Source: an uncultured virus (IMG/VR IMGVR_UViG_3300028564_000002) (taxonomy: Duplodnaviria; Heunggongvirae; Uroviricota; Caudoviricetes). From it: 64,000 nucleotides of DNA. The DNA is taken from the IMG/VR virus record IMGVR_UViG_3300028564_000002; one strand, 5' to 3'. Positions 9,810-64,000 of this stretch are shown here, piece after piece (the stretch's first letter is position 1; every line of letters starts with the position of its first letter). Position numbers and translations under genes: made by a program. The notes under the pieces are model-generated. The model worked only from the letters and a program-made list of their open reading frames with translations. It did no database searches and was not told the DNA's origin.

Positions 9810-9862
9810 TTTTCTCACTCCTTTAATAAGATTATATCATTATTTTTCTTAAAAGTCAAATT

Positions 9863-27696: not shown

Positions 27697-27812
27697 ATGA
27701 AAGGAAGATGATTTAAATGTTCATGTAACAATTCACTATGATTGGGACCCAAATGCAGAAGATTAATTGCTTGACTTTTTAATCTAAATATGATATAATA
27801 AAGGTGAAAAAT

Positions 27813-28079
27813 ATGGGATGGAACAATTTTTCGCCAAGCGCTGATAAAGAAATTACAGAGATTATCTCCGACGCTAAACTTACTTATGATTGCATTGACA
27901 AAGATTTAATCACTGTTGATGTTGAAGTAAATGTTTAGGTCGGAGAAATCACCGTCCCTATCAGGGCTTAGGCAAGTAAAGAAATAAGGGTGAAAGCCCC
28001 AAACTTAATGAGTCATGATAACAAATTTATTTGTAGTTATGACAGCAAATTTATAGATATATAGGAGGGAGACGAATAA
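27813..28079 (+). CDS. Hypothetical protein (three TAGs)
   Basis: Follows the promoter at 27771; its TAA overlaps the next ATG. Confidence 0.55.
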
Positions 28080-31579: not shown

Positions 31580-31597
31580 TGAAGGAGGTAATGCTTA

Positions 31598-31774
31598 ATG
31601 GCAGTAACAGGAACAGGCACACAGGCTGACCCATATGTAGTAACTACATATGGGGAGCTTGTTGAAAAGGCTAAAACAAGCGGTGTATATATAGAGCTCG
31701 CTAATGATATAAATATAGCAGATGAATATCCAAATGAAAATATGCCTCAATTAGAAATTTATCCATCTGAATAA
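31598..31774 (+). pseudogene. Truncated adhesin-like N-terminus
   Basis: MAVTGTGTQADPYVVTT...IELANDI, a motif that usually starts long beta-helical proteins, but only 58 aa. Confidence 0.45.
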
Positions 31775-31781
31775 AGGAGGA

Positions 31782-32891: not shown

Positions 32892-32974
32892 AACGTTAGA
32901 GACTAACGACAATAATTTTACATAAATAGAGAGGAAACAAGTTTTTCTCTCTATTTTTTTTAGGAGGAATTAAA

Positions 32975-33142
32975 ATGACTAAAGAAACTACGAAAGAGCT
33001 TTTAAAGGCTCATTATTACGGCCATCCTTCTGATAAGATTGCGAAAGTATTTAAAATATCAGAGGATGAAGTTAACACTATCATAGAAGATAACAAAGAC
33101 ATTCTTGAAGATTTGGCGGTGAGAGACTATGGTGAAGCTTAA
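32975..33142 (+). CDS. Small HTH-like protein overlapping the lysin start
   Basis: Strong RBS; DKIAKVFKISEDEV. Confidence 0.5.
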   Translation: MTKETTKELLKAHYYGHPSDKIAKVFKISEDEVNTIIEDNKDILEDLAVRDYGEA

Positions 33143-34235: not shown

Positions 34236-34292
34236 TCATTATGCCGCCATTCATAAAGCGGATGGCGGCGATTTTATATGGGAGGTGAGACT

Positions 34293-36299: not shown

Positions 36300-36302
36300 T
36301 GA

Positions 36303-39300: not shown

Positions 39301-39947
39301 CCGCAGATAGAACTGTTGGCAACATAGCCACAGAAATTTCAACATTCTTTACAACAAATAATATAAAGAATGAAGAAGGACAAGACTATGACACAGATTG
39401 GTTCTATGACCAAGCTATTCTTCATGGAGAGTGGGATGATTGGTATATTCACCAGTGTAAGATTTATAATGACCCTACTAAGTCAGGTGAATGGATAACT
39501 CGTTTAAATACTCTATTCGATAGATTGTCTAAAGTTCCAACTTCATATAATAGCTATGGACTTAGTGACCCTGATGGCAATACATTCCAAGGTAGAGTAT
39601 TTATATTTACTGAACTTATTATGGATGTAGCAGTATATGTCTTTGGACCAAATGGACTTTACTCACGTAGAGTTTATGGTAGAGATGCTGATGCTCATTA
39701 CACATCTCAGTACATGAGAGATGAAGAAACGGCAAATGGAAACGTTGATACTTTACGTCAAGACTATGTTGTAATTTCAAACAATCGCAACAATGTCAAC
39801 TATGAAAAATATAAATCAAAGAATCGTTTACTTATAGCGGATGGCGGCGGATATTACACCCCATCCGATGATGATGATTACTTTAACAGTTATGCCATTG
39901 TATGGCAAGATATTGGAACAACCCAACCTTGGGATATTCCTACTTAA
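36303..39947 (+). CDS. Putative structural protein, paralogue 2 (~1214 aa)
   Basis: Track ORFs in one frame joined by TAG; IRLLMPQYKRRVEVEDLNRNFWVIGQ. Confidence 0.7.
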
Positions 39948-39959
39948 TGAGGTGAGAAA

Positions 39960-42900
39960 ATGAATACAAATGACTGGATTGAATTTTTAAAAACTACTAC
40001 TAATATTCAAGTCCTTATAAAAGACATTGGTCTTACCCCACAAGCTCAAAAAACATTTTGGAAAAACTTGCTTGCTCTTCTTAAAGAGCAGGCAAGCCCA
40101 ATTTCATTATTAGAAAAAGACAAGGGCTTATTTAAATTCATTACTGACAATGCTGATTTGAGCGACACTCATTTGCCGCCAAACGATGAATTAATCAGCT
40201 ATCTGTATGAAAATATTAAAGTTCTTTGTGGCACAAAAGATAGTTTCTGGAATGAATCTGTTCAAAAGCTTGTTGAGTTTTTCTCTGAGAAGTTTGATTT
40301 TAATAATATTTCAACCATTCTCCCAATCGCAGGAGATAAAGATATTACAATTCAAACCTTAAAAGATGCAAACGCAGGAGCAAATTTCCCTGAGTATGAT
40401 GAAATTAACTATCCTGGTCAGTATGTTATCCCTTGGTGGAATGCGGCAGGAGAAAGTTATGAAGAAGAAAGGGGACATGACCAGTTAACTGAAACAATTG
40501 AAAGAGACAATAAACTTCAATTCACACGCGAAGTTGATAAAGATAATCCAATATGTCAATGGCTAAGACTTCTCATGCCGCAGTATGGTAGACGTGTGGA
40601 GATAGAAGACCTTGATAGAAACTTTTGGGTTATCAGTCAAACCATAGCCGCAATAAGCAATTATCTCTTTGGTGATGATTGTCCTATCCCAGCCACACTT
40701 GAAGGTTTAACAAGAGAGGTCAGTGAGATATGGGAAAACATTCTTTATTTATGGCTTGGTATAGCAATGAGGTCTTAGGAACAAAATAAAGACATTAAGA
40801 CTATTGTTCTTCCATTACCACCAAGAAAAAATGACCACAGTAGACGCTTTGATATGATTGATGAATCTGAATATTATACTTATGAGGATACTGATGATGG
40901 ATTGAAGATTACTATTAATAATGAAATTAATTTTCTTACTGACATCAAAAATAGAATCAGTTATTTAGCAGAACTTTATGACACAAATCTTTGTGTAATA
41001 CCTTTCATTAGACTTGATAATTATAAGCACAATCATTATGCTGCTGAATGGTATCCTTATATTTTCACATATTTTAGAAATAATAAAGGTTGGGATGCTT
41101 TACGTTTAAAGGAACAGGCAGATGATAAGACTTATGAATTTGTTATTTCTCCAAAATATGAAATTAATAACAGATTTAGTCCAAACATTTATGCTTCAAA
41201 GCAAGACTCAAATGGCAGACTTCTTTATAAATATCCATTCTCAGAACTCAGTATGACAAATAGTGATGGACGTTTAATGCTTTATGCCGCATTGAGAACC
41301 ATTCCTGAGGTATCAGTAGAACTCACACTGACACAGATAAAAGTTAATTCATTAAAGATAAGAGTATATGATGCTTCAAACGATGTGGTTAATGGCGTTT
41401 CTCGTGAGATTGGCGTATATAATTATATTAATGAAGGCTTGGAATCTTTCGTTCACTACACTCCAACAAATAGTGCTCCGCCACAAGAGGATGACTTTCT
41501 TCACTATAAGCGTTTTGAAACCAATAAGCCCGGCTACTATCTTGGTGAAATTCCAAGTTGGAAAGGTAAGACAGCAAGAATTGTTGAAGATGAAGACATA
41601 TTTACCAGAGAGGCTTATGTAATTAAAATTGGTAGCTATATGCCTAATTCAAGCAATCCTGCCGACAGCGCATAGCTTATAGCAAATGCTGAAACTGCTT
41701 GTATGTCAGACCACAACCATACTCTTATGAGAGGAAATATAACCACAACACTTCCTTTTGTTGCACCAAATCTTCCTAACAATGGTCAAACCAATTGTTT
41801 TTGGGAAAATCCATGGGAAAGTTATGTTCCTGAAAGAGATAAGGTTGGAGAAGGAAATGCAGGTTTAGAACGTAAGTCTTGCTTTGATGATGATATATTC
41901 CCAGTAAGTACAAGATATATTAATGAAAAGTATTTAAAAACAAAAGGACTTATTGCTGTAAAGAATTATTTACAGAAAACAAATCATCTTGATTCACCAT
42001 GTTATGTAATGACTGCAATTGGTTTAACTCCATGGTAGAACGAAAATAATCTTATTTATTGGGACATTGGTGGCTTGTGCCATTTGTATCACTACATTCC
42101 AAGTGCTAACACTCTTGAAAAGAAACCTACTGATAATTCATATAAAACTGCTTATGATGATATTGGCATACTTGATACATCAGAATACTATCCAGAAGAC
42201 TATTATCCAGAAGATAGTGGATATGTATCATAGCTTCCACCACCTTCTCCATTAATTTATATTGAAGATGATTATGACGCTCTTTGTTATTATCAAAACG
42301 AAATTGCCGCTTGTCAAGAATATGTTAAAGATGGCGTAATTACTGGCTGGGAATCTCCTGCTGTATACGGTAATATTGACATGGATAATAGATAGATTCT
42401 TGAGGAGCCAGGTCAAGACCCAGAGACAGTTCTTGGTGCTTGGTCAACATTTGTTTATGAAGGCATCACAAGAATTATTATATGTTTCAGTATGTTGCAA
42501 CAAACTCAACCACCTGCAACTGAACCAATTAAACTTACTGACCAACAATGTAATGACTATCTTGTTTCAATTACCGACAGAGTAATGGCAGAAATGGCAC
42601 TTAGTCATGAACCTACTTACGACCAGTACGATGAAATAAAGAGACGTATTTTTGAATACGACGCACAAGATAAGAAACTCATAGCAGGCGTAGAGTTTAC
42701 ATAGGAAGCTCAATGGGATGCGGGCACAAAAACAGCTAAGCTTAGTGAAGCTCTTCACTATGTAGGTAAGTTTGGTTCAATCCAAATGACCGCCGAAGAA
42801 CTTCAAGAGCTTTGTGATAAATATGAAATTGAGTTTGATGATTTTGTAGCAATTGATAATCCACAAGATTTCGCCGCAATATCTTACGGCGGCAAGATAG

Positions 42901-43436
42901 TGTCATGTAATACAATACTTCGTCTTGATACTTTCTTTGAAGTCTATGGAATGTCTACAAGAGAAGTATATTACAGACTTAATGAAGGCTTTGGTTGGAG
43001 ACAGTTCCAGCTTGTATCTAACACCGATGAAAAGTGTGATTGTATTATAGTAAATGAAGGAGACCCAGAAGACGATGGTAAGATTTACTATGATGTTCAA
43101 TTTGCTACCGAGTTTAATGGTACGGTTAATTACTATGATAACAGAAAAGCAGAAGCATGGGGTAAAGAAACATTTGACCCTGACGTTTAGGTTGGAACTG
43201 CAAAGGTAAAAATAGATAACACAGGTTATAGTCAATCAGTAGAAGATGTTGGTTATATTGCGACAGCAAGAGAAGGTGATATCACTCTTAGAGAAAATCT
43301 TGCAGTAAGTGATATCAATACAGGTTTCGCAAAATCACCAGTTGATTTCTTCAATCCTTCTGTAAATATGGAAGGAAAGACTTTTAACATCTTCAATGGC
43401 GCAAGACCTGTTTCAAGACAATACTGGAAATTCTAA
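39960..43436 (+). CDS. Putative structural protein, paralogue 3 (~1158 aa)
   Basis: TAG-joined frame; LRLLMPQYGRRVEIEDLDRNFWVISQ. Confidence 0.7.
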
Positions 43437-49665: not shown

Positions 49666-50682
49666 ATGATTGTAGCAGTAATAATTGGAATAATAGCTAT
49701 TCTATTAATTCTCATCTACGCCATTCCTCGCATTAATAAATAGGTGGATAAGCCTGAATACTCTCAGACTTTCTTTGAACAGAAGAAGTTTATTTGTAAG
49801 AAGATGCGAGAGGAACAGCAAAAACTCGTAGAATAGAACAAGAAAGAAATTGACGACAGTCTTAAAGAATATGTCGCCAACTGTGATGCTAAGCGGTAGG
49901 CGGCATTGGACGAATTAGAACGTGCAAAACAAACTCTCCATGACTCAGAGGAATACTATGCTCGGCGTTTAAAAGAACTTGAACAGAAAACTTTTGACCT
50001 TGTTGACGAGGAATCAAAGAAGTAGGCATTGGAATTACAAGGCGTAGTAGACTTCTATCAAACTCGTAGACAAGAAATCTACAACGACTTTGAAGCTTTC
50101 CAAGAAAAAACTAATGCAAGACGTGAAGAATTGAATGAAGTTTTCAGAAGAGAAGAGGCTAAACAGCAGGAAATAATTGAGGGGTACAAGCGAGCTGAAC
50201 AAATAAAACAAGATAAAAACTTTTATCGCATTGTTCTCAATGAAGATGCTTAGGATGACGTAAAGAAATTACGTAAGATAGCCACTGACCTTCATGACCC
50301 AACTATTATCTACAAGCTTATCTACAAGACTTACTATGAAAAGCCATTCACTGAAATGGTTGGACGTGTTGTATCTAATGATGCAAGTGCTTGTGGTATC
50401 TACAAGATAACCAATTTTGAAAATGGACGTTGCTATATAGGTCAAACCAGATAGGCTTTTAAAGAACGTTGGCGTACCCATTTGAAAAGAGGAGTTCGTG
50501 CCGAAGCAGGTACAGCTAATAAACTTTATCAGGCTATGTGGGAAGAAGGAGCAGAAAACTTTACTTTTGAAGTTTTAGCGCAATGCTCCGCCGCCGAACT
50601 CAATGCGAAAGAAAAAGAATACATTGCTCTATACCATGCTGATACTTGGGGATACAATGGTAATAGCGGTATCGGAACATAA
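49666..50682 (+). CDS. Protein with a TM anchor, coiled coil and C-terminal GIY-YIG nuclease domain
   Basis: TAG-joined frame; CGIYKITNFENGRCYIGQT...ERWRTH...EKEYI...GYN. Confidence 0.75.
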
Positions 50683-50709
50683 TGGATTTTATTTTGAGGA
50701 GGAATATTT

Positions 50710-51042
50710 ATGACTAAATTTTTCATTTCACAATCAATGAGAGGTTTATCACAAAAAGAGATTAAGGAGCGTCGTGAGTTTCTTACTGATTTAATTGCAG
50801 ATAACTTTAGTGGAGCTATTGTTCTCGACTCTTTCTTAGAAGGAGCAAAGGACGTTGACCCATTGGTTTGTCTTGGTCATGCTATCACTATTATGTCAAA
50901 AGCAGACGCAGTTGTATTTGATACTGGTTGGCTTGAGGCACGTGGCTGTAAAATTGAATATGAAATTGCAAAGGCTTATGGTAAACAGATTTATTTTGTC
51001 ATTGACGATGAAGGTCCTGCTTTCCTTGCACCCGAAAAGTAA
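50710..51042 (+). CDS. DUF4406-like (nucleoside deoxyribosyltransferase fold) protein
   Basis: FISQSMRG, ADAV and GWLEARGCKIEYEIA. Confidence 0.7.
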   Translation: MTKFFISQSMRGLSQKEIKERREFLTDLIADNFSGAIVLDSFLEGAKDVDPLVCLGHAITIMSKADAVVFDTGWLEARGCKIEYEIAKAYGKQIYFVIDDEGPAFLAPEK

Positions 51043-51231
51043 TATTAGCACTCCCTTTTATAGGGGGTGCTTTATTTTATTATATGGAGATAAAATATTC
51101 CAATCCCATTAGAAATTTGGGAAATACTTTTTTAGATTTTTGCCCGTTTAATTTTACCTAAATTAAGAGAGAATATCTCTCATTGGGCGGCTTAAGGAGT
51201 CCAATTATTTTTATAAAACGAGGTGAATTAA

Positions 51232-51918
51232 ATGAGCACTTACAAAATGACAGGTCCTGGCGGCTTAGATTGCGCTATTCCACGTCCAAAGAGACCGTTT
51301 CCACCAGTTCCTCCTCCACCACCTGTTCCACCATGTCCTCCACTTCCAGATTGGGAGGTTTATCCATACTACCCACCATATCCAGAGATGGATGCTGAGC
51401 CAGTGCCAACTCCTCCAATTCCAGGAAGACACCCTCATCCATTCCCACCAATTCCACCACATCCTCCAATTCCACCACATCCTCCAATTCCTCCATATCC
51501 ACCACCAAAGCCTGAGAAGGTTGATGAATGCTCAAAGAAGCTTGCTAAACTTACTCAGAAGACTAAGGTGCTTGTTCAGATGATTAAGGACTTTGAGAAT
51601 AAGAATCGTCCAGTAATCGTTACAATCGGTCCTAATAGCTATTCATTCGGCACTGAAAACATTACTGATTTCCATGGTGACCCAGCTAAGGGTATGTATG
51701 CAAACATTGTTTGTGGTGACCCAATTGAGGACTTCCAGCCAGAAGAGATTGAGATTGATGACACTAATACTCGTGTTTCTGTTAAGAATCCAGTTGACCT
51801 TCTTCAGACAGAACTTGCAAGAGTTCGTAAGGAAATCACACTTGTAGCAGCAGCTATTAATGATGAAATTTCTGGTGAGAACGAAATCTCTAATAACGGT
51901 GTTCCCGGAATAGAATGA
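51232..51918 (+). CDS. Proline-rich hypothetical protein
   Basis: PPIPPH repeats followed by a coiled coil. Confidence 0.65.
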   Translation: MSTYKMTGPGGLDCAIPRPKRPFPPVPPPPPVPPCPPLPDWEVYPYYPPYPEMDAEPVPTPPIPGRHPHPFPPIPPHPPIPPHPPIPPYPPPKPEKVDECSKKLAKLTQKTKVLVQMIKDFENKNRPVIVTIGPNSYSFGTENITDFHGDPAKGMYANIVCGDPIEDFQPEEIEIDDTNTRVSVKNPVDLLQTELARVRKEITLVAAAINDEISGENEISNNGVPGIE

Positions 51919-51943
51919 AAATCACTAATTTGATTTAATTCAA

Positions 51944-51969
51944 AGGAAGGCTTTGTGCCTTCCTTTTTT
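51944..51969 (+). terminator. Intrinsic terminator
   Basis: GGAAGGC-TTTGT-GCCTTCC followed by a T tract. Confidence 0.7.
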
Positions 51970-52040
51970 GTTTAGTTATTGACTTTTTAAATAATTTTTG
52001 TTATAATATTATTGTAATAAAGATTAAGGAGGAAATATAA

Positions 52041-52295
52041 ATGAGAAATAAGTTAAATATTGTTGGCGAAAGAGATGCTATGGCTTTTTGCATTGCTGCT
52101 TCAAAGTGTATAGGTGAGGTAATGCTTGTTGACGAGAATCGCAGACAGTGCGTAAACGGCAAGTCCATCATGGGTTGTACGCTCGCTATGACCGAGTGGA
52201 AGGAAATTTGGGTCGAGACAGAGAACGATTGCTATTCAGCTCTCGAAGAGTGGATAGAAGTCGCTGCTGACGATGGCGCTTTTGTTCACGAATAA
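52041..52295 (+). CDS. HPr-like protein
   Basis: VNGKSIMG motif and HPr-like size. Confidence 0.6.
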   Translation: MRNKLNIVGERDAMAFCIAASKCIGEVMLVDENRRQCVNGKSIMGCTLAMTEWKEIWVETENDCYSALEEWIEVAADDGAFVHE

Positions 52296-52365
52296 TTTCG
52301 ATTGTCGTTCTGGTCATAATAGTTTTCGTACAATTTTTTAAAACTTTGCCAAAGGAGTGAGAAAA

Positions 52366-53157
52366 ATGATAGGCGCAATCGTAGGGGACGTGGTCGGTTC
52401 TCGATTTGAGTACCATAATCACAGAGATAAAGAGTTCCCGTTATTTACAGATAGCTGTAAAGTAACGGATGATAGCATCATGACAACTGCCATAGCCATT
52501 GCCGTCATGGATTACAAAGAACATGGACGGCCACTGGACAAGGCGGCAGTTCATTGGATGCGTAGAATAGGATAGCCATATAAAAACGCAGGATACGGCG
52601 GCAGATTTGCACAGTGGATGTATAGTTCTGACCCAAAACCTTATAATAGCTTTGGCAATGGTGCTGCTATGAGAGTATCGGCTTGTGCTTGGGCGGCAGA
52701 TACAATGTTTGATGCAATTGAAATGAGTGATGAAGTTACAAAGGTAACTCATAATCATCCCGAAGGAATAAAGGGAGCAAGAGCTGTTACTGCGGCAATT
52801 TTCATGGCAAGAACAGGGTGTTCAAAGGACGAGATTTATGAGTTCATTGACCAAAATTATTACTCATTAGATAAATCTGTTAATAAAATTCGGGAGACTT
52901 TACAGTTCGATGAAACTTGTCAGGTGACTGTTCCAGTTGCTATACAGTGTTTCTATGAGTCAGAAGATTTTGAGGACTGTCTGCGTTTGGCTATTTCTGT
53001 CGGTGGAGATTCAGATACTATCGCCGCCATAGCTTGTAGTATTGCCGAAGCATACTATGGAGTTCCAGAGAATATAAGAGAAAAAGTTTTAACTTTTGTT
53101 CCACAGCAACTTAAAGATATTTTATTCAGATTTGAGGAGATTTATGAAGAAGAATAA
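52366..53157 (+). CDS. ADP-ribosylglycohydrolase (DraG/ARH family)
   Basis: GAIVGDVVGS, TDDS, GNGAAMR, THNHP and GGDSDT; joined through TAG 52573. Confidence 0.9.
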
Positions 53158-53557
53158 GATTACTTTAAAAAGAGTAGTTAATAGCTATAAACCCAGTTGG
53201 AAAACAACTCCGGGTGTCGGCTCAGAAGAGTTTTATAAGAAGTGGGGTTTTCACTATGAAGACCTTTGGAATCTTGATGCTGAATCAGCATACTATCTTG
53301 CTGTAAGGCTTACGCTTTATCGTGATTCTCAGAGCGGACTTCCAACAACAATTCTTTCCCATTATGGCGCGAACTGGGAAACCAGAACAGCCGAACAGGA
53401 AAGAAAAGCCAGTAAGGCTTGGCGTACAATACTTAATAAGATGATATTAGGGTTCTATCTTTATGCATCTGTATTTAACCCTGATGATAAACAAGAAAAA
53501 ATAATTAACAAAGCATATAAACTTTTTGCTGAATGGCATGAGTCGCTTTGGGATTAA
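53143..53557 (+). CDS. Hypothetical protein
   Basis: ORF with RBS; DLWNLD...LWD. Confidence 0.55.
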
Positions 53558-53570
53558 AGGAGGAAAATAA

Positions 53571-53844
53571 AATGGGAAATGAAAAGGAAATGTATCCAAA
53601 GGCAAATTTCAGAATGAAGGTAACTTTACTTGAAAAGCAGGACGGCGGCGAAGGACTTAAGGTTGTAGCCTCTAAATGGGTTAAGGGAAATGGTAAGGAG
53701 TTCCGTGAATCTATTAAAGAGGACAGAGCGAATGGTGCTGAGAGAACAATTGAAATTGTTGATAGAGCACCAGAGAAGTTTAAGATAAATCAGATTTATA
53801 TGCTGAGAGACCGCAACGTTGTTTGGGTTTACACTGAAGCCTAA
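53571..53844 (+). CDS. Hypothetical protein
   Basis: Strong RBS; followed by a terminator hairpin at about 53851-53878. Confidence 0.55.
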
Positions 53845-54040
53845 TAAAATTCTGCCCCTTTGAGGGCAGATTTTTTTCTCAGAGAAAAATTTGACTTTTG
53901 AAAAAATTTATGATATAATCGCGCGCGCGCCCGCCTATTTAAATAGTATAAAAGCAAAGAATTTTTCTTTGAGAAAAAATTGACTTTTATAAAAAATTAT
54001 TATATAATAAATACAGAAATTCAGAAAGGAGTTAAAACGA

Positions 54041-54526
54041 ATGTATACGATACCACTTCAGATTCATGAACAGGGAGGTACTGATTATTCTTTTACAGAT
54101 ATGGACACCTTCTTAGAGACAAGAGAATCAAGAGAATATCTTTTCAATGCACAAGAGGTTCAAGACGAGATTGAATCTTACATCTTCGACGCTATCGTAT
54201 GGGTAGCTGAGAACAACAAGCGTCCAAAAGATGATAAATTAAGCTGGGATGAATGTCCTTATCCTCTTGATTTTGTTCAGGAGTTAATGGAATGGACAGA
54301 CTTTATTTACAACTCGGATGATGACATCCTTGACGATTATGACCTTTATAAGGGTTGGGAAGCTTTAACAAGAATTTACTATAACCCTAAAAACAAGAAG
54401 TATTACGGCGTGCCATACACAAGAAGTGGCTATGGCGATTCCGATTGGTATATTGCAGATTTCTGTGAAGCCGTCGCAAAAGAAAGAATTGAAAAATATT
54501 ACGCTCTCCTTGATGGAGAAGAATGA
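54041..54526 (+). CDS. Acidic hypothetical protein
   Basis: Downstream of tandem promoters at 53891 and 53980. Confidence 0.6.
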   Translation: MYTIPLQIHEQGGTDYSFTDMDTFLETRESREYLFNAQEVQDEIESYIFDAIVWVAENNKRPKDDKLSWDECPYPLDFVQELMEWTDFIYNSDDDILDDYDLYKGWEALTRIYYNPKNKKYYGVPYTRSGYGDSDWYIADFCEAVAKERIEKYYALLDGEE

Positions 54527-54535
54527 GAGGTCTAT

Positions 54536-55044
54536 ATGGAACAGCTTATTAAAAAGTTTGAATACAAGGATAAGGTATTACTACCATAGAAGAGATTTAT
54601 GAGTATGATAGTAAAGTCTTTCAAGAGTGGCGAGATGCTGGCTTTATCAAAGGAACTGAAAAAGAAGAATTTGAAGAGGCTACTGACCGCTATATGCTCG
54701 ATGTGCTCCGTTCAATTATATTCGACCCCGAACAAGACTTTGAGACAGACGAAGAGGCGAATGCCGCTTATGAAGAATCTATTGACCTTGGTCGTCAATT
54801 CTTAAAACTTGCATATGAACTTGACTTTTGGGACTATGCAGAAAAGACAGCTGATGGCACAGACCTTGATGACAGTTATATGGACGTAACCTATTACTTT
54901 AAGGACTACAAGGAAGAGAATCTTTACTTTGCTTTCAGTGGCAGAGAAACTCCTTGGACAAGTTATGATGAACATGACTATACTTTTTGGGCGGCGAAGC
55001 GTGTTCCAGTAACCACATATGAATATGTTTCTTATGATAAATAA
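54536..55044 (+). pseudogene. Acidic hypothetical protein, apparently frameshifted near 54573
   Basis: The ATG 54536 frame differs from the long frame that opens at 54574. Confidence 0.45.
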
Positions 55045-55128
55045 ATTTTAAATAAAGAAAATTTGACTTTTTAAAAAATCTTTGATATAATATATATAGA
55101 AAATCAAAAAGAAAAGGAATGATGCTTG

Positions 55129-56052
55129 ATGATGTTAAAAAAGTATGTTGATATCGAGCGTCTTAAGGATAAGTACGCTGAGGCTTTCAAGGCAGGAGAG
55201 CATATTACAATCACAGAGAAGATTGATGGTGCAAATGCATCCATCTCTGCAAACGAGGATGGCACACTTTCTTGTTTCTCAAGAAGACAGGAGCTGAGTG
55301 CTGAGAACGGTCTTCAGGGTTTCTACAACTACGTTCAGACTCTTGACCCAACTATTATCTCAGCTACACTTGGCACAAGATACATCTTTTTCGGTGAGTG
55401 GAATTGTAAGCATACAATCGTATACCCTGAGAGCCGCCTTAAGCAGTTCTACGTATTCGATGTATGGGACACTGAGATTGAGCAGTACCTCCCTTGGGAG
55501 CAGACTAAGCAGATGGCAGAGTTCTGCGGTCTGAAGATGGTTCCGCTCTTCTACGACGGTCCTTTCACATCTTGGGAGGATATCTACAAGTTCGTAGGTA
55601 AGACTGAGATGGAGGGTAGTCCTACTGGTGAGGGTATCGTCATCAAGTCACAGGACCGTCTTGACAATAAGTCAAGCAGAACACCTGCATACGTAAAGAT
55701 TGTCGCAAAGGAGTTCTCTGAGGTTCACCAGTCTAAGCCACAGAAGGAGATTGACCCAGAGAAGCTTGCCAAGAAGCAGGCTGATGAGGCTCTCGCTGCA
55801 ACAATCGTAACTGAACGAAGGGCGGAAAAAACTTTGGAAAAACTTATTGACGATACTCTTTTAAAACCTGACTGGGATGAGCATGATTTAGGCTATCTTG
55901 CTAAAACCGCACCTAAATTGGTATATGAAGATTGTAGAAAAGAGGAGCCTGAAATTGTAAATGCCATTGAAAACTTTGGAAAAATTTGTGCTAAATTAAC
56001 TATGGCTCATATCCGCAACATTCTTCTTAATAAAAGCTCAGAAATTATTTGA
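55129..56052 (+). CDS. Rnl2-family RNA ligase
   Basis: TEKIDGAN, FGEW, FYVFDV, EGIVIK and KIV. Confidence 0.85.
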   Translation: MMLKKYVDIERLKDKYAEAFKAGEHITITEKIDGANASISANEDGTLSCFSRRQELSAENGLQGFYNYVQTLDPTIISATLGTRYIFFGEWNCKHTIVYPESRLKQFYVFDVWDTEIEQYLPWEQTKQMAEFCGLKMVPLFYDGPFTSWEDIYKFVGKTEMEGSPTGEGIVIKSQDRLDNKSSRTPAYVKIVAKEFSEVHQSKPQKEIDPEKLAKKQADEALAATIVTERRAEKTLEKLIDDTLLKPDWDEHDLGYLAKTAPKLVYEDCRKEEPEIVNAIENFGKICAKLTMAHIRNILLNKSSEII

Positions 56053-56094
56053 GGATAAAATAATAATTTCTACATCTTTATTGAGGTGATAAGA

Positions 56095-57009
56095 ATGGGA
56101 AAATTTATTGATTTGACTGGATAGATATTTGGCGATTTAACTGTCATTGAAAGAGATACAACTGTTGCCGCAAGAGAAGCATATTGGAAATGTCGCTGTA
56201 GTTGCGGAAATATAATTTCGACAAGAGGGAGCACCCTTAGAGGTGGAAAAGCTACTTCCTGTGGATGTATGTCTGGTAAGAAAGCTGGCGAAAAAATGAC
56301 AAAAGATTTAACTGGTTAGACTTTTGGCGAACTAACAGTTTTATAGAAAGATGAAACTAACACTCAAAAAGGAGCATTTTGGATTTGTAAATGTTCTTGT
56401 GGGACAATAAAAACTATAAATGGTTCATCTCTTCGCCGCGGTGCCACCAAGAGTTGTGGATGTAAGTCTGCGCTTTTTGAAAGTCAAAAATATTATAAAG
56501 AAGATTTAAGCGGTGAAGTTTTTGGACGTTGGTAGGTTATAAAAAGAGATGAGGAAAATCATTTAGGACAAGGGGCTTATTGGCTTTGTCAATGTTCTTG
56601 TGGGACAGCGAAATCAGTAAGAGAAACAAACCTTAAAAACGGAAAGAGCTTATCTTGTGGATGTTTACAATCTCGTGGCGAATGGCTGATTTCTAATTGT
56701 TTAAAAGAACTTGGCTATGATTATAAATCTTAGTATAGTTTCCCTGAGCTGTTAGGAGATTATCTTCCATTACGATTTGATTTTGCTATATTTGATAATG
56801 ATACTATTTTAGCTTTAATAGAATATTAGGGAGAACAGCATTATCAAAACAGAGAATTTTTTGAAACGCATTAGTCTTTTGAAAAAAGGCAAGAATATGA
56901 TTAGAGAAAAAGAGATTATTGTAAAAATAATAATTTAACTTTAATTGAAATTCCGTATTGGGATTATAATAAAATTAACAAAGAGTATATTTCACATCTT
57001 ATTAAGTAA
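56095..57009 (+). CDS. Free-standing homing endonuclease: three Zn-binding repeats plus a PD-(D/E)xK domain, missed by the ORF track
   Basis: Three copies of DLTGxxFGxLxV...WxCxCSCG...SCGC, then SRGE, RFDFAIF, IEY(TAG)GEQHY and IEIPYW; many TAGs. Confidence 0.8.
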
Positions 57010-57022
57010 GGAGGAAGAAATA

Positions 57023-57172
57023 ATCGACCTCGGTGTAATCGCAAAGCATCTCCCTCGTGCAGTTTACAATGACTGTGTAAAGGAGGAATCCGAGACAGTT
57101 GAGCAGATTGAGAACTTCGGCAAGATTTGCGGCGCTCTCTCAATGAAGCTTGCAAGAGGTCTTATCAAGTGA
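57023..57172 (+). pseudogene. Displaced duplicate 3' end of the RNA ligase gene
   Basis: DLGVIAKHLPRAVYNDCVKEESETVEQIENFGKIC matches the ligase segment DLGYLAKTAPKLVYEDCRKEEPEIVNAIENFGKIC. Confidence 0.8.
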
Positions 57173-57291
57173 TATTTGACGTAGACATTGCATTAGAATT
57201 AAAAGAATAGTTTGAGAAGGAGTTACTTGCCAACGCTATAGAACTCCTTCCTCCTACAAATAAAACAACAAATACTATGGAGGAAAAAAGT

Positions 57292-57897
57292 ATGACAAAT
57301 GATTTCATGAAGGGTATGTTCGGTGCACTCGGTAAGGGTATGTGCAAGATAACATTGGATGGCGGCATCGCTGTAAAGACTTCTGACGGATATAAGACTT
57401 ATGATAAGACAAGCGGTTCTTTTATAAATTGTGATAGCTTCTGCTTTGGCGGACTTGACGAAATGTTTTTCGTAGTTCCTACTAACGCAGTTGCAGAGGG
57501 CGATATAATTTTTGCTAAGGGTAAGCCTCGTTATGTTCTCAAGGTGGATACTAATACTATCACTGTAATCAACTACGAAAATGCTACGGTAGAGACTATC
57601 CTTCCTGAGCGTCACATTTTTATGGGTAATACCTACTTCTACGGCAAGATTGTATCTATGTTCGGCAATGGCGACAATCTTACAGGCGGAGCTGGAGCAC
57701 AGAACATCATGAAGTACATGATGATGAGCCAGATGTGCAAGAACATGGGCGGCGGAGATATGAACCCTATGATGATGATGATGTTTATGAACGGCGGCGG
57801 ATTTGGAGATGTGTTCAATAACATTTTCAGTGCCATGACACCTCCAACTCTTGCACCTAAGACAACTGAGACTGAGACTGATAAGGAGGATAAGTAA
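57292..57897 (+). CDS. Hypothetical protein with a Met/Gly-rich C-terminus
   Basis: GGAGG RBS; NPMMMMMFM. Confidence 0.65.
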   Translation: MTNDFMKGMFGALGKGMCKITLDGGIAVKTSDGYKTYDKTSGSFINCDSFCFGGLDEMFFVVPTNAVAEGDIIFAKGKPRYVLKVDTNTITVINYENATVETILPERHIFMGNTYFYGKIVSMFGNGDNLTGGAGAQNIMKYMMMSQMCKNMGGGDMNPMMMMMFMNGGGFGDVFNNIFSAMTPPTLAPKTTETETDKEDK

Positions 57898-58027
57898 TTA
57901 TGGGTATGCCAAGTTTTACAGATAAGGACTTCACAACTTATAGCACAGAATCGCTGTTTCATGGCGACGAAAACATGGAAGCTGAAATGGTCTATGCAGA
58001 CCATGATGATGAGGAGATAACTGACTA

Positions 58028-58897
58028 ATGGGTGGCGGAAGTTGGACAACTGAAAATTTCGTAAATTATTCTAAAAGTCTCAGCAGAGGTTTATCTGCTG
58101 ACGGCTCAGTAAATATAAAGAATTGTTCTGCGCAGGCAGTTTATACTGCCCGCTGGCTTGACCCTGTTCTTGACCCTAAGAATAAGATAAGAGAGTGTTG
58201 CGATTCAGCAGAGCATCCTAATACTATCCCTGTAATTCTTGCTCTTGACGTAACTGGCTCAATGGGTCGTTCTGCTGTCGAGGTAGCATCTGAACTTAAC
58301 AACATTATGACAGAACTTTACAAGGACATGACAGACGTTGAGTTCATGATTATGGGTATCGGTGACTGTGCATATGACGATGCTCCGCTTCAGGTATCAC
58401 AGTTTGAATCTGATATTCGTATTGCAGAACAGCTTGATAAACTCTATTTCGAGGGCGGCGGTGGAGGAAATTCTTTCGAGTCATATACAGCCGCTTGGCA
58501 GTTTGCAAATGACAATACAAAACTCGACTGTTGGAAGAGAGGCAAGAAGGGTATTATCATTACTATGGGTGACGAGAATCTGAACCCATATCTTGCTACG
58601 GGTTATGACGAAGCCGTTGGCAGAGAAGGTAAGGATACTCCTGTCCTTTACAAGGAAGTAACTCAGAAGTATGATGTTTACCACATTAACGTAAAGCACG
58701 ACGGCTACAACAGAGTAGATAAGCATACATGGACAGACGTAATCGGTGAAGACAACTACTTTGAAAGTGAAGTAAAGGGAATAGCACAGCTTATTCCTAA
58801 TATTATCAGAGAGCATGAAGGAGCAACTTCAATAGCCGTTCCAGTAGATTGTGCTACTGATGTAAGTTTTGACGAGAACGGCGCAATAGTCTGGTAA
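58028..58897 (+). CDS. vWA-domain protein
   Basis: MIDAS motif LDVTGSM, plus GGGGN.ESY and TMGDE. Confidence 0.8.
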   Translation: MGGGSWTTENFVNYSKSLSRGLSADGSVNIKNCSAQAVYTARWLDPVLDPKNKIRECCDSAEHPNTIPVILALDVTGSMGRSAVEVASELNNIMTELYKDMTDVEFMIMGIGDCAYDDAPLQVSQFESDIRIAEQLDKLYFEGGGGGNSFESYTAAWQFANDNTKLDCWKRGKKGIIITMGDENLNPYLATGYDEAVGREGKDTPVLYKEVTQKYDVYHINVKHDGYNRVDKHTWTDVIGEDNYFESEVKGIAQLIPNIIREHEGATSIAVPVDCATDVSFDENGAIVW

Positions 58898-58909
58898 AGG
58901 AGAATATAA

Positions 58910-60058
58910 ATGGCGGAAATAAAAATCGTATCAGGTCTTAACTATGGTGACGAATCTAAAGGACTCGTTGCCAATGCAGTATCAACTCCGACCTGTCTTA
59001 ATATCTTACCCTCAAACTCTTGTCAGAGGGCACATACTGTTGTTCATAATGGTGTAAGAAGAGTTTTCCGTCACTTTGGTAGCGGTACTCTTAAAGGTGC
59101 CGCTACATATTTTTCTGAAGAGTTTATGGTAAATCCTGCTATGTTCAGACGTGAATGGGAAGAGCTTGAAGCTATGGGAATTACTCCCAAAGTCTATGCA
59201 AAAATAGGCGGTGTTATGGTATCTCCTGTTGATATGTTTGCCAACATAAATGTTGAGGGGCGCCGCGGCGATAATTCTCATTCATCTACAGGATGCGGCG
59301 TTTGGGAATCATTAAATCGTCATAGGGTTTGTACTGAAATGGCAGGTACACCTCACTATCATTTTGATACTTTAATCAAATATTATGAGGATGTTCTTAG
59401 GGATAAAGATGGTACACTGCCAGAGGATATTACTGATTTTCTTCATGGAGAATATCTCGAACAAAATATTGACGAAGATTTCCACTGGTTTTATGACCAT
59501 ATTACCTTGATTAAGAGCGACGAGGAAGAAAAAGCACTTCTCCATTCCTATCCTCTTCTTGTCTTTGAAAATGGACAGGGACTTCTTCTTGCGGATGACC
59601 ATAGCTATGACTATGAACACAATACTCCTGCATATGTCGGTGCACGTGTTCCTTCTAAAATTATAACCGAAAATTTCGAGCAGAATGAAGTTGACATTGA
59701 GGCTCTCTATGTAACTCGTTCATACCTTACTCGTCATGGCAAGGGACAAATAGGTCAGACTTCTAATCTTGAATGTAAGAAGGAAGATATCAATCCCGAT
59801 ATGGTTGACCTTACAAACGTTCCTAACCCTTATCAGGGCACTTTACGTTACGGCAAATTCGACAAGCGTGAAGCTGATGCCGCAGTAGCGAGAGCTATCA
59901 GAGACTCAAAGTACTTCTCTATGAAGGGATGGAAAGCAACTCCATCACTTGTTGTAACTCACATCAACGAGTTCGCAGGACCAGAGATACTTACGGCGGC
60001 GAAGGGTAACATCAAGCTTTACACTTCTGATAATGAAGAGTCTATAAATTTAAAATAA
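58910..60058 (+). CDS. Divergent adenylosuccinate synthetase-like protein
   Basis: NYGDESKG, HTV, STGCG, FENGQGLLL, TRSYLTRHG and LRYG. Confidence 0.8.
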   Translation: MAEIKIVSGLNYGDESKGLVANAVSTPTCLNILPSNSCQRAHTVVHNGVRRVFRHFGSGTLKGAATYFSEEFMVNPAMFRREWEELEAMGITPKVYAKIGGVMVSPVDMFANINVEGRRGDNSHSSTGCGVWESLNRHRVCTEMAGTPHYHFDTLIKYYEDVLRDKDGTLPEDITDFLHGEYLEQNIDEDFHWFYDHITLIKSDEEEKALLHSYPLLVFENGQGLLLADDHSYDYEHNTPAYVGARVPSKIITENFEQNEVDIEALYVTRSYLTRHGKGQIGQTSNLECKKEDINPDMVDLTNVPNPYQGTLRYGKFDKREADAAVARAIRDSKYFSMKGWKATPSLVVTHINEFAGPEILTAAKGNIKLYTSDNEESINLK

Positions 60059-60183
60059 TAAAAATTTGACTTTTCTGAAAAATAATAGTATAATATATAT
60101 AGAAAGTTAAGAGATTAAGTAATTTAATAATTGATGATTTGATTTTATCAAAAACAACTTATTTATGGAAGGAGTGATGCTAT

Positions 60184-61104
60184 ATGATGCCAATTTTATA
60201 TATGATGATTGGCGTTCCTTAACCAGGCTCTGGTAAGTCATTCATTGCTCGTGACCTTGGTTGCCCTATTGTCTCCTCAGATGATATCCGAGCAGAATTG
60301 TTCGGTTCTGAGGACGACCAGTCTCATAATGGCGAGGTATTCAACGAGCTTCATAAGCGTATAAAGAGCTACCTTGCGAATGGGCAGTCTTGTGTTTATG
60401 ACGCAACGAATTTATCTCGTAAGCGTAGAAAGAATTTTTTAAAGGAACTTCCTAAGGACGTTAAGAAGATTGCTGTAGTAGCGGCTACGGAAATCGACGT
60501 TATCTTAGAGCAGAACGCTAATCGTATGCGTCACGTTCCTGTTGATGTTATCATGAGAATGTTTAAGACTATGACTCTTCCTCGTCTTGACGAGGGCTGG
60601 AACTCAATTTGTCTTATCCCTAATCCTAAGAACAAGACAACTCTTGGTGAGTATTTGTATGACTGCTACGGTGTAGACCATGACAATCCTCACCACTCTG
60701 CAAACATCTTCGACCACATGATTGAAGCAGGAGCATATGCAAATGCACACGCAGATGAAAAGGGTCTTGACAGAGACCAGAAGCATCTTGCTCGCACTGC
60801 CGCCCTGTTCCATGATATTGGCAAGCCTATTGTAAAGTCTCGTATGAAGGCTAACGGTCAGCTTGATGATAAGTCTCACTACTACAATCATGCCGAAATC
60901 GGAGCATACATGATTGCTTGCTGTGTAGGACAGTTCTCTGAAAAGCAGTATGAGTTTTACAAGAAGTTAATTGTTCTTGTTCAGTGGCATATGGATAGCT
61001 ATGCTAACCCTAACCACTACCTTGACGATTTTGAGACATCTTACGGCGGCGAAATGAGAAAGGTTCTCGAACTGGTTCATGAAGCCGATATGCACGCTCA
61101 CTAA
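60184..61104 (+). CDS. Polynucleotide kinase (AAA_33) plus HD domain, with an in-frame TAA inside Walker A
   Basis: MIGVP*PGSGKS, SSDDIR, YDATN, HHSANIFDH, HDIGK, YNHAE and HEAD. Confidence 0.75.
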
Positions 61105-61113
61105 GGAGGATAT

Positions 61114-61287
61114 ATGTTTATACTTTTGATACTTTTAAGTCTTGCCAATGCTATCGTATGTATGGGCTTTATTGTTGCGGAGTTTAAAGACAGAAAGACT
61201 CCAAGAAAAGGCAGGGTTATTTTTGAAGGTTTCAATATAATTTACTACATATGGTTTGCGGCATATGTTTATTTTAAATTAATTTGA
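61114..61287 (+). CDS. Small two-TM membrane protein
   Basis: RBS and two hydrophobic segments. Confidence 0.45.
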   Translation: MFILLILLSLANAIVCMGFIVAEFKDRKTPRKGRVIFEGFNIIYYIWFAAYVYFKLI

Positions 61288-61383
61288 GTTAAAAATTTGA
61301 CTTTTTTCTAAATTTATGATATAATTATTATAGAAACGGTGAGAGAATATTACATTTAATTATCGTTTCCACTTCTTAAAATT

Positions 61384-61578
61384 TAGGGGTCAGCCCTAAT
61401 ACAATAGCTTGGAAACAAGAGTGTATGGCGAAAGTATGAGATACGAACTTGTTCGGCAATTCAGTCCGACAGGTCTCGTATCGAAATGCTTCAATGGGTC
61501 GCCAAGTTCCTTTGGGAATGTGGGAAGAAAACAGGTGGTGTCGCAAAGGGTAGCTCCCTCCACCTGTTAAGACCACTT
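61384..61578 (+). ncRNA. Unidentified structured RNA
   Basis: GC-richer than its flanks; stems GATACGA/TCGTATC and AACAGGTGG/CCACCTGTT; lies just after the promoter at 61297. Confidence 0.5.
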
Positions 61579-61593
61579 TAAAGCGACATTAAT

Positions 61594-61686
61594 GCGGTAT
61601 TGGTGTAATGGTAACATATCTGAAATGTCGGGTTCGACCCCGCATCCGAACAGAGGTTGCGAGTTCGACTCTCGTATACCGCTCCA
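61594..61686 (+). tRNA. tRNA-Gly-like RNA whose anticodon loop is replaced by an extra hairpin
   Basis: Acceptor GCGGTAT/ATACCGC + T-CCA, D arm, T arm GCGAG-TTCGACT-CTCGT, and a 28-nt segment between TCTG and CAGA. Confidence 0.7.
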
Positions 61687-61788
61687 TTATGAGGCGCACA
61701 CAGCAACTTATAAACAAAAGAAAATGTTTTTAATTTGGTGAAAAACTCTATCTTTATTTATATGCGTCTTGTGAATTCATATTTGGCG

Positions 61789-61869
61789 TACCTACCACGC
61801 CTCTGCCAGAACTTAAGCAGGATGGTCGCGACATCGTGTGAGGAGTCAGGTTAAGCGTACCACGGTAGG
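61789..61869 (+). ncRNA. Unidentified multibranch structured RNA
   Basis: Stems ACCTACC/GGTAGGT, ACGC/GCGT, CTGC/GCAG and GATG/CATC. Confidence 0.4.
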
Positions 61870-61931
61870 TCTTTAAACCCATCTTATTTTAAGATTTGGA
61901 GAATAACTTGTGGGGGTTCATTCTCCAATAT

Positions 61932-62008
61932 CTTCCATTAGTCCAACTGGTAGAGACACATAGCTCAAACCTATGACAGTCTCGGTTCGAATCCGAGATG
62001 GAAGACCA
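61932..62008 (+). tRNA. tRNA-Leu(CAA) with a short variable loop
   Basis: CTTCCAT/ATGGAAG, CATAG-CTCAAAC-CTATG, CTCGG-TTCGAAT-CCGAG and ACCA end. Confidence 0.85.
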
Positions 62009-62063
62009 ATTCTAAAAAGTTAGATTTATGAAGACAATATGTAATAATACAATTTATAATGAC

Positions 62064-63534
62064 CAAGCCAGAAAACCCCTAATCTTTAGATTAGGGGATG
62101 AATGGCTAATACACAATCCAACCTAAGTTGGCATAAATTGATTGTAATTTTAGTTATTTTAGTATATAATATACATATAGCAAATATTAAAGAAAGGAGG
62201 TTAATAAAGCATGGAATATGCAGTACAAAGTAATGTAATTCGTGGACTTACAAAAGAACAACATCAGATTTTAACAGAGTTGTGCCAATATTCAAATAAT
62301 CTCTATAATGTAGCACTTTACAATATTAGACAGTATTTCTTTGCTCAAAATAAGTTTTTAACTTATGAAAGCAATTATCACGAATGTAAGGATAATGAAA
62401 ATTACAGTTTACTACAAGCTGGTGTTGCACAACAGACTATGAAAGTAGTAGACAGGTCTTTTAAGTCATTCTTTAACTTACTTAAAAAGTGCAAGCAAGG
62501 CGAATATCGTTACAATGATGTTAAGATTCCACACTATCGCAAGAAAGGTGGACTTTTTAACCTTGTGTTATCTACCAATGCTATTTCTATCAAAGATGGG
62601 TATTTCAAAATTCCTATGAGTAGAGAATATCGCAAACTTAAAAACTACAAAGACGATATTAAGATACCGTTTCCTAGTAGATTACAGGATAAAACTATTA
62701 AAGAAGTTCGTATATTGCCTTGTAGTAATGGTAAGTATTTTAAGGTACAGTATGTCTATGTTGTAGAGCAAGAAATTAAGACTTTAGATAAGGATAAAGT
62801 TATGGCTATTGATATAGGAGTAGAAAACCTTGCTACTTGTGTTTCCAATGTAATGACACCATTCATTATGGATGGTCGTAGGATTAAATCAATCAACCAG
62901 TATTGGAATAAGCAAATGGCAAAGTGTAAATCTATTGCTATGAAACAGCAAAAGACATCTAAAGTCACTACAAACCGTATTCAAAGACTTACTACTAAAA
63001 GAAATAATCAGGTTACTGACTGTATTAAGAAAACAGCTAGATATATTATCAATCAATGCCTTGCAAATAATATAGGAACTTTAATTGTGGGTTATAACAA
63101 AGATTTCAAGCGTTCTGTAAATATAGGAAAGCAGAATAATCAAAACTTTACACAATTACCATTTGGTAGTCTAAGAGAGCAATTACAATTCTTATGTTGG
63201 AAGTATGGTATTGAGTACATAGAAGTAGAAGAAAGTTATACATCAAAGAGTAGTTTTTTGGATAATGATGAATTACCAGAGTATAGACCAGAGCAACCAT
63301 ATACAAAAGGTTTTAGTGGTAAAAGAATAAAAAGAGGGCTATACCAAAGTAAGAATGGTACAACTATCAATGCAGATGTAAATGGAGCATATAATATATT
63401 AAGAAAAGGTAAGCAGGACTTCACTTGTGAAGAACTGTCTAGTGGGCTATTGGCAAGTCCGTTACGAATAAGGTTGTCGTAAGGCAACAAACTTGGTAAG
63501 AATCCCCGATGCTTTAGCATCGTGGGAGTGTCAA
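62064..63534 (+). mobile_element. IS200/IS605-family element carrying tnpB only
   Basis: Left hairpin CCCCTAATC-TTTA-GATTAGGGG; right hairpin CGATGC-TTTA-GCATCG followed by the TCAA end; no tnpA. Confidence 0.8.
62211..63482 (+). CDS. tnpB: TnpB RNA-guided nuclease
   Basis: LYNVALY, AIDIGVENL, EESYTS and NADVNGAYNIL. Confidence 0.9.
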   Translation: MEYAVQSNVIRGLTKEQHQILTELCQYSNNLYNVALYNIRQYFFAQNKFLTYESNYHECKDNENYSLLQAGVAQQTMKVVDRSFKSFFNLLKKCKQGEYRYNDVKIPHYRKKGGLFNLVLSTNAISIKDGYFKIPMSREYRKLKNYKDDIKIPFPSRLQDKTIKEVRILPCSNGKYFKVQYVYVVEQEIKTLDKDKVMAIDIGVENLATCVSNVMTPFIMDGRRIKSINQYWNKQMAKCKSIAMKQQKTSKVTTNRIQRLTTKRNNQVTDCIKKTARYIINQCLANNIGTLIVGYNKDFKRSVNIGKQNNQNFTQLPFGSLREQLQFLCWKYGIEYIEVEESYTSKSSFLDNDELPEYRPEQPYTKGFSGKRIKRGLYQSKNGTTINADVNGAYNILRKGKQDFTCEELSSGLLASPLRIRLS

Positions 63535-63548
63535 AGGGGAGAATACTT

Positions 63549-64000
63549 ATGGGAGGAGACATCAAATTTATAATTCAATCTGACAGTGGTTTATTTCCTG
63601 AGTCAGACATACTACGTAATGTAATACATGAGACAGTAGGCTCAAGACCATGGAGTGTGTCTTATGAACAAATAGGGTTTGAGAAATTCAAAAGAGGACT
63701 ATCTACAAACAGTGAAAGATATAAAAATCACTTTCCATTCGGCAGCATAAACTTCGTAGAATATTGGTTAAAGCATTACTATAATAGGATTATGCAACCA
63801 ATAGAAGTACCAAGCATACTGAGAACAGATGAAATGCTAAAGAGAGATTATAAGATACTTACTAAAGATAAAATCCCACATCATGGGAGATATTTTATCA
63901 AGAATGTAAGTAGATTAAAGTCTGGTAGTTTTCTTGGTGACGCTGAAAAATGGCATATTGCATATAAGGGTGACTATGACGGCAATTCAATATTCTCTGT
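63549..64000 (+). CDS. Putative ATP-grasp (DUF4343-like) protein, partial
   Basis: PFGSINFV...PIEVP..LR...LKRDY...YFIK; runs off the window edge. Confidence 0.5.
   Translation, partial: MGGDIKFIIQSDSGLFPESDILRNVIHETVGSRPWSVSYEQIGFEKFKRGLSTNSERYKNHFPFGSINFVEYWLKHYYNRIMQPIEVPSILRTDEMLKRDYKILTKDKIPHHGRYFIKNVSRLKSGSFLGDAEKWHIAYKGDYDGNSIFS

Follow-up and report, generated by a model that had tools for sequence, protein, structure and literature searches.

The 93-nt gene at positions 61594-61686 (+ strand) of the stretch analysed here (64,000 nt of the uncultured virus record IMGVR_UViG_3300028564_000002, hereafter the window) is very probably a chimeric, non-decoding tRNA-Gly pseudogene, private to one lineage of a TAG-recoded phage and produced by one event of illegitimate recombination. 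Since close relatives have the normal gene, a one-off recombination scar is the most likely reading, not a new kind of RNA, and judged by sequence comparison the gene does not represent a conserved RNA class.

A tRNA-Gly Gene with a Second T-Arm-Like Hairpin

ARAGORN called a tRNA with an undetermined anticodon at this place, and the Rfam model RF00005 scored the stretch with 45.2 bits (gathering threshold 29), with the acceptor, D and T stems paired. A first, sequence-only reading had held that the acceptor stem (G1-C72, C2-G71, U73), the D arm, the T arm and the CCA end are intact, and this was borne out by the alignment; the acceptor end thereby has the glycine identity features given in PMC9976931, and its stem is common to many phage tRNA-Gly genes. 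The strands of the 4-bp anticodon stem, TCTG and CAGA, are separated by 28 nt and enclose the hairpin CGGG-TTCGAC-CCCG at 61629-61642, as had been read. Compared with the bacterial and phage tRNA-Gly(UCC) genes of RF00005, the chimera is thus alike in everything that a functional molecule needs in its cloverleaf acceptor, D and T arms and 3' CCA, but it has no 7-nt anticodon loop, lacks U33, and carries C35 and C36, which belong at the tip of that loop and are identity elements of GlyRS according to PMC9976931, out of place. The loss of the loop and of U33 supports the earlier statement that the molecule cannot decode as it stands.

The likeness of the inner hairpin to a T arm, also claimed from the sequence, stands for the hairpin and needs a correction for its loop, which has 6 nt in the window, one below a T loop, and the canonical 7 nt in the allele of the wastewater contig X12 and in the donor described below. 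This 1-nt difference is the only variant of the inner hairpin observed, and there is no diverged carrier to align for covariation. When the 28-nt loop was shuffled 200,000 times, 34 of the shuffles gave a hairpin of T-loop type. With ViennaRNA, the pairs of the inner hairpin reached probabilities of 0.16-0.17, versus 0.22-0.25 for a competing helix that pairs part of the old anticodon, and the fold of the whole chimeric RNA was no better than that of shuffles (z -0.84); folding energies discriminate little here, the cloverleaf of an intact orthologue (L218) lying at -18.6 against a predicted minimum of -20.3. Two other readings of the loop were tried and rejected: the inner loop as a new anticodon loop, which would have 6 nt, or 7 nt with C37, and a different folding of the left junction into a Gln(CTG)-like loop, which has four weak pairs and no support.

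The Intact Gene in Related Phages

A locus search based on the neighbouring kinase gene gave 16 loci, one of them the twin of the window and nine too distant to share the tRNA cluster. Supplemented by single contigs from a metagenome, a genome and a run, the kinase loci provided nine non-identical relatives that cover the slot of the tRNA gene. Seven have an intact tRNA-Gly(TCC) (L123, L124, L125, L128, L218, G141:C65 and X17); in L126 an insert of 857 nt, which has a GIY-YIG ORF, divides the gene, and in L127 its 5' part is missing and only the 3' end is left as assembled. None of the nine syntenic relatives carries the insert, so that the search for homologues retaining it, which had been suggested, came back empty among them, and the recurrence in diverged phages expected of a conserved two-T-arm phage tRNA-like RNA was not seen.

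L218 is 79.5% identical to the window over 1286 nt, and the two tRNA genes differ only by the insert and by CCA/CTA. The first 29 bases and the last 39 bases preceding CCA are shared, and TCT is replaced by 22 nt at 61623-61644; all 68 of the 68 nt outside the insert and CCA are equal, meaning that the tRNA body is undecayed. In X17, a contig from the bovine gut, the tRNA body is the same, with nine substitutions that all lie upstream of the tRNA and none within it, and the loop is shorter by 19 letters, left out in three pieces in the gap table. The ancestral tRNA-Gly(TCC) had a 5-bp anticodon stem and the loop CT-TCC-GA.

On the + strand, the gene can be divided accordingly. Positions 61594-61622 are the 5' part of the phage tRNA-Gly(TCC), with the 5' acceptor strand (61594-61600), the D arm and the first four bases of the anticodon stem, identical to L218 in 29 of 29 nt. 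The foreign 22 nt at 61623-61644, delimited against L218 and by the donor match, stand in place of T31-C32-T33 and comprise the variable loop, the T arm (the 4-bp inner hairpin) and the first 3' acceptor base of a Ruminococcus-type tRNA-Glu(CTC). They are followed by TCCG (61645-61648), common to L218 and the 3' acceptor strand of the donor; what had been noted as a residual TCC is indeed present and, according to the intact relatives, is the original anticodon 34-36 with its natural G37. The rest of the tRNA-Gly occupies 61649-61686, with the 3' strand of the anticodon stem, the variable loop, the outer T arm (61659-61675), the 3' acceptor strand (61676-61682), U73 (61683) and CCA; the 39 nt shared with L218 are 61645-61683.

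Pattern scans revealed no second lineage with the insert, neither in viral contigs nor in metagenome contigs, where the two hits were L218 and a twin of the window. A closed two-T-loop pattern had eight hits, namely the window's twin, one tmRNA, four ordinary tRNAs and two stretches unrelated in sequence (L140 and L144). The generic two-T-loop scan of viral contigs returned at least 120 stretches, none of them homologous; on visual inspection, most consisted of an ordinary tRNA and a separate T-arm hairpin behind it. Among the best 30 of 519 records of a named phage collection, there were matches to T arms or tRNA-Leu only. As an observation apart, L140 (about 583-685) and L098 contain an unrelated sequence in a tRNA frame that ends in CCA, bears an additional T-arm hairpin and was missed by ARAGORN.

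The Donor of the Insert

The donor was sought with a 21-nt pattern, taken from the allele with the 7-nt loop, against 185,579 species genomes, giving two hits. One is a Ruminococcus tRNA-Glu(CTC), in which also six upstream bases outside the query match (about 1 in 4,000 by chance per hit); the other is an actinobacterial tRNA-Leu, whose match ends at the left edge of the pattern. Counting the 22-nt insert and the next four bases, the tRNA-Glu agrees with the window in 26 of 27 bases, one C of a run being absent, and with the X12 allele in 27 of 27. The matched segment covers the variable loop, the T arm and the first five 3' acceptor bases of the donor, and the 22 nt correspond to about positions 44-66 of its tRNA-Glu(CTC).

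With up to three mismatches, the donor motif is found in 21 of 161 genomes of the Ruminococcus genus, with no match for the reversed control, and in none of 400 other genomes sampled from the same class. All scored loci are tRNA-Glu-type genes in chromosomal tRNA clusters, and of the 14 donor alleles whose T stem begins with T as in the insert, 13 are Glu(CTC). The donor contig is presumably chromosomal by its ORFs.

At the right junction, TCCG forms a 4-base microhomology between the acceptor strand of the donor and the anticodon plus G37 of the recipient. At the left junction, all 25 donor alleles end in TCT, the same three bases that the recipient lost, and none ends in the window's CTG, so an exact microhomology is missing from these alleles at this side.

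A copy of the donor borne by the window phage itself is possible, and none was seen in relatives: there was no match within five edits in the 182.6-kb contig G141:C65 and none in the tRNA-array regions of G003 and G004. The donor pattern had no hits in viral contigs, and an 18-nt insert pattern had six, five in one unrelated, non-tRNA context and the sixth in the window's twin.

Authenticity of the Sequence

The hairpin resembling a second T arm is real and not an assembly error. Identical sequences across the chimeric gene in L001/L122 and L219 are not independent of the window, but the RNA-library contig X13, from activated sludge and a different study, spans the gene without any difference, and X12, from wastewater DNA, spans it with one extra C; X12 is near-identical to the window and possibly a source of this DNA. 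Fourteen of 21 runs contain at least half of the sampled words of the region, five of these 14 being possible sources of this DNA, and the insert allele occurs in runs of several studies from 2019 to 2023. Runs X16, X18, X19 and X20 were left out of the counts, X19 having no coverage of the tRNA. The intact allele was absent from the contigs of two runs of the window lineage, contigs being prone to drop rare variants. T arms of tRNAs are common mis-join points, and an assembly chimera of phage and bacterial tRNA reads could in principle be built there; with the insert in separate assemblies, including one from an RNA run of a different study and one whose allele has an additional C, and with a junction-shared stretch of only 4 nt, its probability is practically nil. 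The sequence-only reading had named, as what would count against it, a normal tRNA-Gly in relatives together with an insert unique or absent from reads. The relatives do have the normal gene, and only one near-clonal lineage has the insert, though the insert does occur in sequencing runs.

Genomic Setting

Read-through of TAG raises the long-ORF cover of the window from 0.78 to 0.89, and on sequence grounds the window belongs to a large phage predicted to read TAG as an amino acid. In-frame TAG codons occur in a DraG-like gene and in an HNH-type ORF, and CTA suppressor tRNAs are found in relatives, as are tRNA arrays with 45-46 matches. In 25876-43436 and elsewhere, TAG read-through joins long ORFs, with up to 17 TAG per frame; it is concentrated in the + strand structural block, many replication genes being free of TAG.

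Upstream of the chimeric gene lie the RNA ligase and kinase-HD genes, and downstream tRNA-Leu(CAA) and an IS605-family TnpB gene. The RNA ligase gene (PF09414; 55126-57172, +), identified by ORF and domain scan, appears to be interrupted at 56095-57009 by an HNH-type endonuclease ORF that contains TAG. The interruption of about 950 nt consists almost entirely of this ORF, with 8 TAG codons and very little room for a group I core, and a ligase-like C-terminal frame restarts near 57010; endonuclease ORFs also seem to interrupt the Sak4-like and nrd regions. A sigma70-type promoter-like site (61297-61325, +; 11/12, by consensus match only) precedes the RNA cluster. Directly upstream of the tRNA, at 61384-61580 (+), there is a conserved structured non-coding element with no Rfam match (z -4.35 for 61384-61530), kept in seven aligned sequences, in which 13 of 38 predicted pairs were changed on both sides.

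Two further elements with no Rfam match, downstream of the chimeric gene, are kept in relatives. One, at 61691-61771, is a stem with CAGCAA after its 5' arm, and units like it recur behind tRNA genes in L124-L128 and L219; the other, at 61786-61875, is closed by a hairpin and measures about 90 nt. The intact tRNA-Leu(CAA) of the same cluster (61932-62008, +; ARAGORN and Rfam) has a short variable loop, as in L126, L128 and G141:C65, while L124 and L125 have long-arm versions in this slot. Right after it, at 62020-63540, the TnpB gene stands without a transposase; at this position the relatives continue straight to CAGCAA-type elements and a conserved gene.

Larger inserts in anticodon loops were observed in relatives. 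The insert that splits the tRNA-Gly(TCC) of L126 (3365-4296) in its anticodon is itself tRNA-shaped, with an acceptor-like and D-arm-like 5' end, a T-arm-like 3' end with ACCA, and the GIY-YIG ORF, which contains TAG, in between; tRNA-maturation enzymes could excise it, with the phage ligase as the sealing enzyme. The tRNA genes at 8470-9009, 9705-10256 and 19287-19852 of G141:C65 and at 7741-8289 of L345 have anticodon-loop inserts of about 470-500 nt, consisting of an ORF and paired ends with no room for a group I core.

A Stop Codon in the Kinase P-Loop

The gene for the polynucleotide kinase (AAA_33) with HD domain (60184-61104, +; ORF and domain scan) has an in-frame TAA at 60220-60222 within its Walker A motif, where 60217-60225 reads CCT-TAA-CCA, two codons more than normal and with the stop between two Pro codons. 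Among the 16 kinase loci, the same TAA arrangement is present in the window's twin, L126 and L127 (77% and 74% protein identity, respectively), and a TAG version in L129 and L130 (about 40% protein identity), in which TAG may be Gln; the other 11 have a plain Walker A motif. The five codons that follow show three synonymous and no replacement changes in each of three comparisons. A ribosomal hop from CCT to CCA would restore the canonical motif, making the site a candidate for a programmed stop-hop. No report of such a stop-hop in a kinase was found in the literature search and the passages that it returned, a search of 401 genomes of the family gave no hit for the kinase, and one of 401 genomes of the class gave none for the stop-hop pattern.

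Possible Host Link

The donor gives a hint at a subgroup of Ruminococcus as host of this uncultured family of TAG-recoded phages; otherwise the link is weak. No CRISPR spacers supporting it were found: two short near-exact matches in genomes of the genus were rejected as spacers, one being a ribosome-binding-site stretch and the other a coding stretch. The relative G141:C65 is binned in a Ruminococcus-genus genome, and its end is joined to foreign obgE/nadD genes. Since this obgE shares 43-48% identity with the copies native to the genus, and a further copy exists in G141, the contig end is probably mis-joined. Endolysin DNA matches of 64-72% in the genus have no control and were not counted as host support.

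Origin and Alternative Explanations

Comparison established the ancestor, the type of donor, the junction positions, the loss of U33 and the absence of the insert from relatives. Starting from these, a DNA break, a stalled fork or a template switch may have occurred in the anticodon loop of the phage tRNA-Gly gene and been patched by short-homology annealing to bacterial DNA, probably that of the host, during infection. The Sak4-like annealing protein encoded in the window (E 4e-37) would be a candidate for the annealing. Nuclease-bearing introns sit in anticodon loops of the family (L126, one in G004 and three in G141:C65), one of them in the same gene slot, and such an endonuclease could have supplied the cut; the tRNA-Gly of L126 differs in sequence around the loop from the window allele. 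The missing exact microhomology at the left junction is a counterpoint. Alternatively, a clean insertion between U33 and U34 may have been followed by the loss of 3 nt, which would fit since the donor's TCT directly left of the insert equals the three lost recipient bases; we found no intermediate that retains TCT. The chimeric RNA probably continues to be transcribed and trimmed at its ends along with its cluster, would be unable to read GGA and, as far as its sequence tells, would at best be poorly charged. It may persist because the gene is dispensable, a loss that seems tolerable given that one relative is without most of the gene and another, L218, has CTA for CCA.

The recombination scar, which the sequence-only reading had listed among several options, is thus supported by an identified donor and a normal gene in relatives. 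The tRNA mimic or decoy listed beside it gets no support from conservation. As an allele of accidental origin that was selected later, it would use its two T loops and missing usable anticodon to mislead tRNA-targeting defence nucleases or synthetases, or would shield the anticodon loop of tRNA-Gly from a homing endonuclease aimed at it. The unchanged body and CCA, the putative transcription indicated by X13, the RNA ligase and kinase in the same gene cluster and the GIY-YIG intron in the same loop of L126 all speak for it, as do phage tRNAs reported in PMC10264068 to escape anticodon nucleases through loop changes. We nevertheless regard it as unlikely: neither the relatives nor the viral and metagenome pattern scans yielded a second carrier, one base of the inner T loop was lost in the allele of the window, L122, L219 and X13, the ligase and kinase also adjoin intact tRNA-Gly genes, and the endonuclease of L126 may not cut the window allele, considering the differences around the loop. 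The undecayed body points to a young event and also fits continued selection, and together with the runs of 2019-2023 and the presence in an RNA library it makes a later co-option conceivable. In a more elaborate and doubtful version, the intron endonuclease of a rival phage cut the anticodon loop, the break was healed with a piece of host tRNA-Glu, and the product was kept as it removed the target and yielded a chargeable, anticodon-less two-T-loop decoy of host defences. If the allele is under selection, a tRNA decoy would be seen at its origin; if the elaborate version holds, a tRNA mimic would have been caught at birth with both parents known.

Processes at the RNA level fare worse. That the phage ligase joined the tRNA-Gly halves to a host tRNA-Glu fragment, and a reverse transcriptase wrote the product back into DNA, would suit the break in the anticodon loop, the blunt left junction and the adjacent ligase and kinase genes, but RVT_1 occurs in none of five related records, of which one is complete, the microhomology at the right junction is of the kind that DNA annealing typically leaves, and the ends of the fragment are not known as usual tRNA cut sites, making this route very unlikely. 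A short protein-spliced intron, removed by an endonuclease and the neighbouring ligase, would resemble the enigmatic introns of Lak phages, one of them tRNA-like, described in PMC6784885; anticodon-loop introns are known in the present phage family, and excision of 19 nt returns TCC to 34-36. Yet three original bases are gone, and of the 15 normal-length products that a single excision can give, not one has U33 or a 5-bp stem; as no single excision rebuilds the U33 anticodon loop, the insert is very probably not an intron, and the reading of it as a splicing substrate for the neighbouring ligase/PNK fails as well. No splice joint was present in RNA contigs, which drop rare forms, and we would give this type of intron hardly any chance. 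A group I intron was rejected, its core needing about 200 nt or more against 22 nt of insert, and no intron family was among the four Rfam matches up to E 1 within 50000-64000. Also rejected was a remnant of a tRNA-shaped intron like that of L126, as the exact donor is another sequence and an NCCA end is missing. Finally, since integration commonly leaves tRNA 3' fragments (PMC9897764) and the insert is a 3'-side fragment with a T loop, it might be an attachment-site core for integration into a host tRNA-Glu gene. This is extremely improbable: the match stops before the last two acceptor bases, the discriminator and CCA, so that a crossover would not rebuild the host gene, and relatives are without the insert. 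Among the scanned proteins, which cover part of the window's ORFs, there was no integrase.

Comparison with Known Systems

As a scar, the chimeric gene carries little biological weight, and better leads lie nearby in the conserved stop codon of the kinase P-loop, the tRNA-shaped intron of L126 and the uncatalogued structured RNAs of the cluster. It cautions against taking every second T loop in a phage tRNA call as a sign of a new RNA class, and offers a worked example, with ancestor and donor both known, of how phage "tRNA mimics" can arise by the swap of tRNA modules between cell and phage. A bacterial tRNA fragment within a phage tRNA gene is unusual in direction and position. At the level of titles and openings of abstracts, in a search that left subscription papers mostly outside, no comparable case was found, and the word "intron" is absent from the main text of PMC7162821.

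Besides the tRNA-Gly(UCC) genes, two known systems are close to the chimera. The tRNA introns of Lak megaphages (PMC6784885), including a tRNA-like intron of tRNA-Thr(TGT), share with the chimera a TAG-recoded phage and tRNA-derived sequence in the anticodon loop, and the tRNA-shaped insert of L126 is comparable to their tRNA-in-intron arrangement. They are conserved across cohorts and were defined by alignment with intron-less alleles, whereas the insert of the chimera is private, amounts to only a third of a tRNA and replaced bases of the gene, so that its excision cannot restore it; the resemblance to the Lak introns is limited to location. The group in which the chimera is best placed, the tRNA fragments left by integration of mobile elements or by uptake of CRISPR spacers (PMC9897764), likewise involves a partial tRNA gene moved between element and cell and a non-canonical tRNA call; the chimera differs from them in being a bacterial fragment within a phage tRNA gene, which is without the 3' end of its donor and flanks no integrated element.
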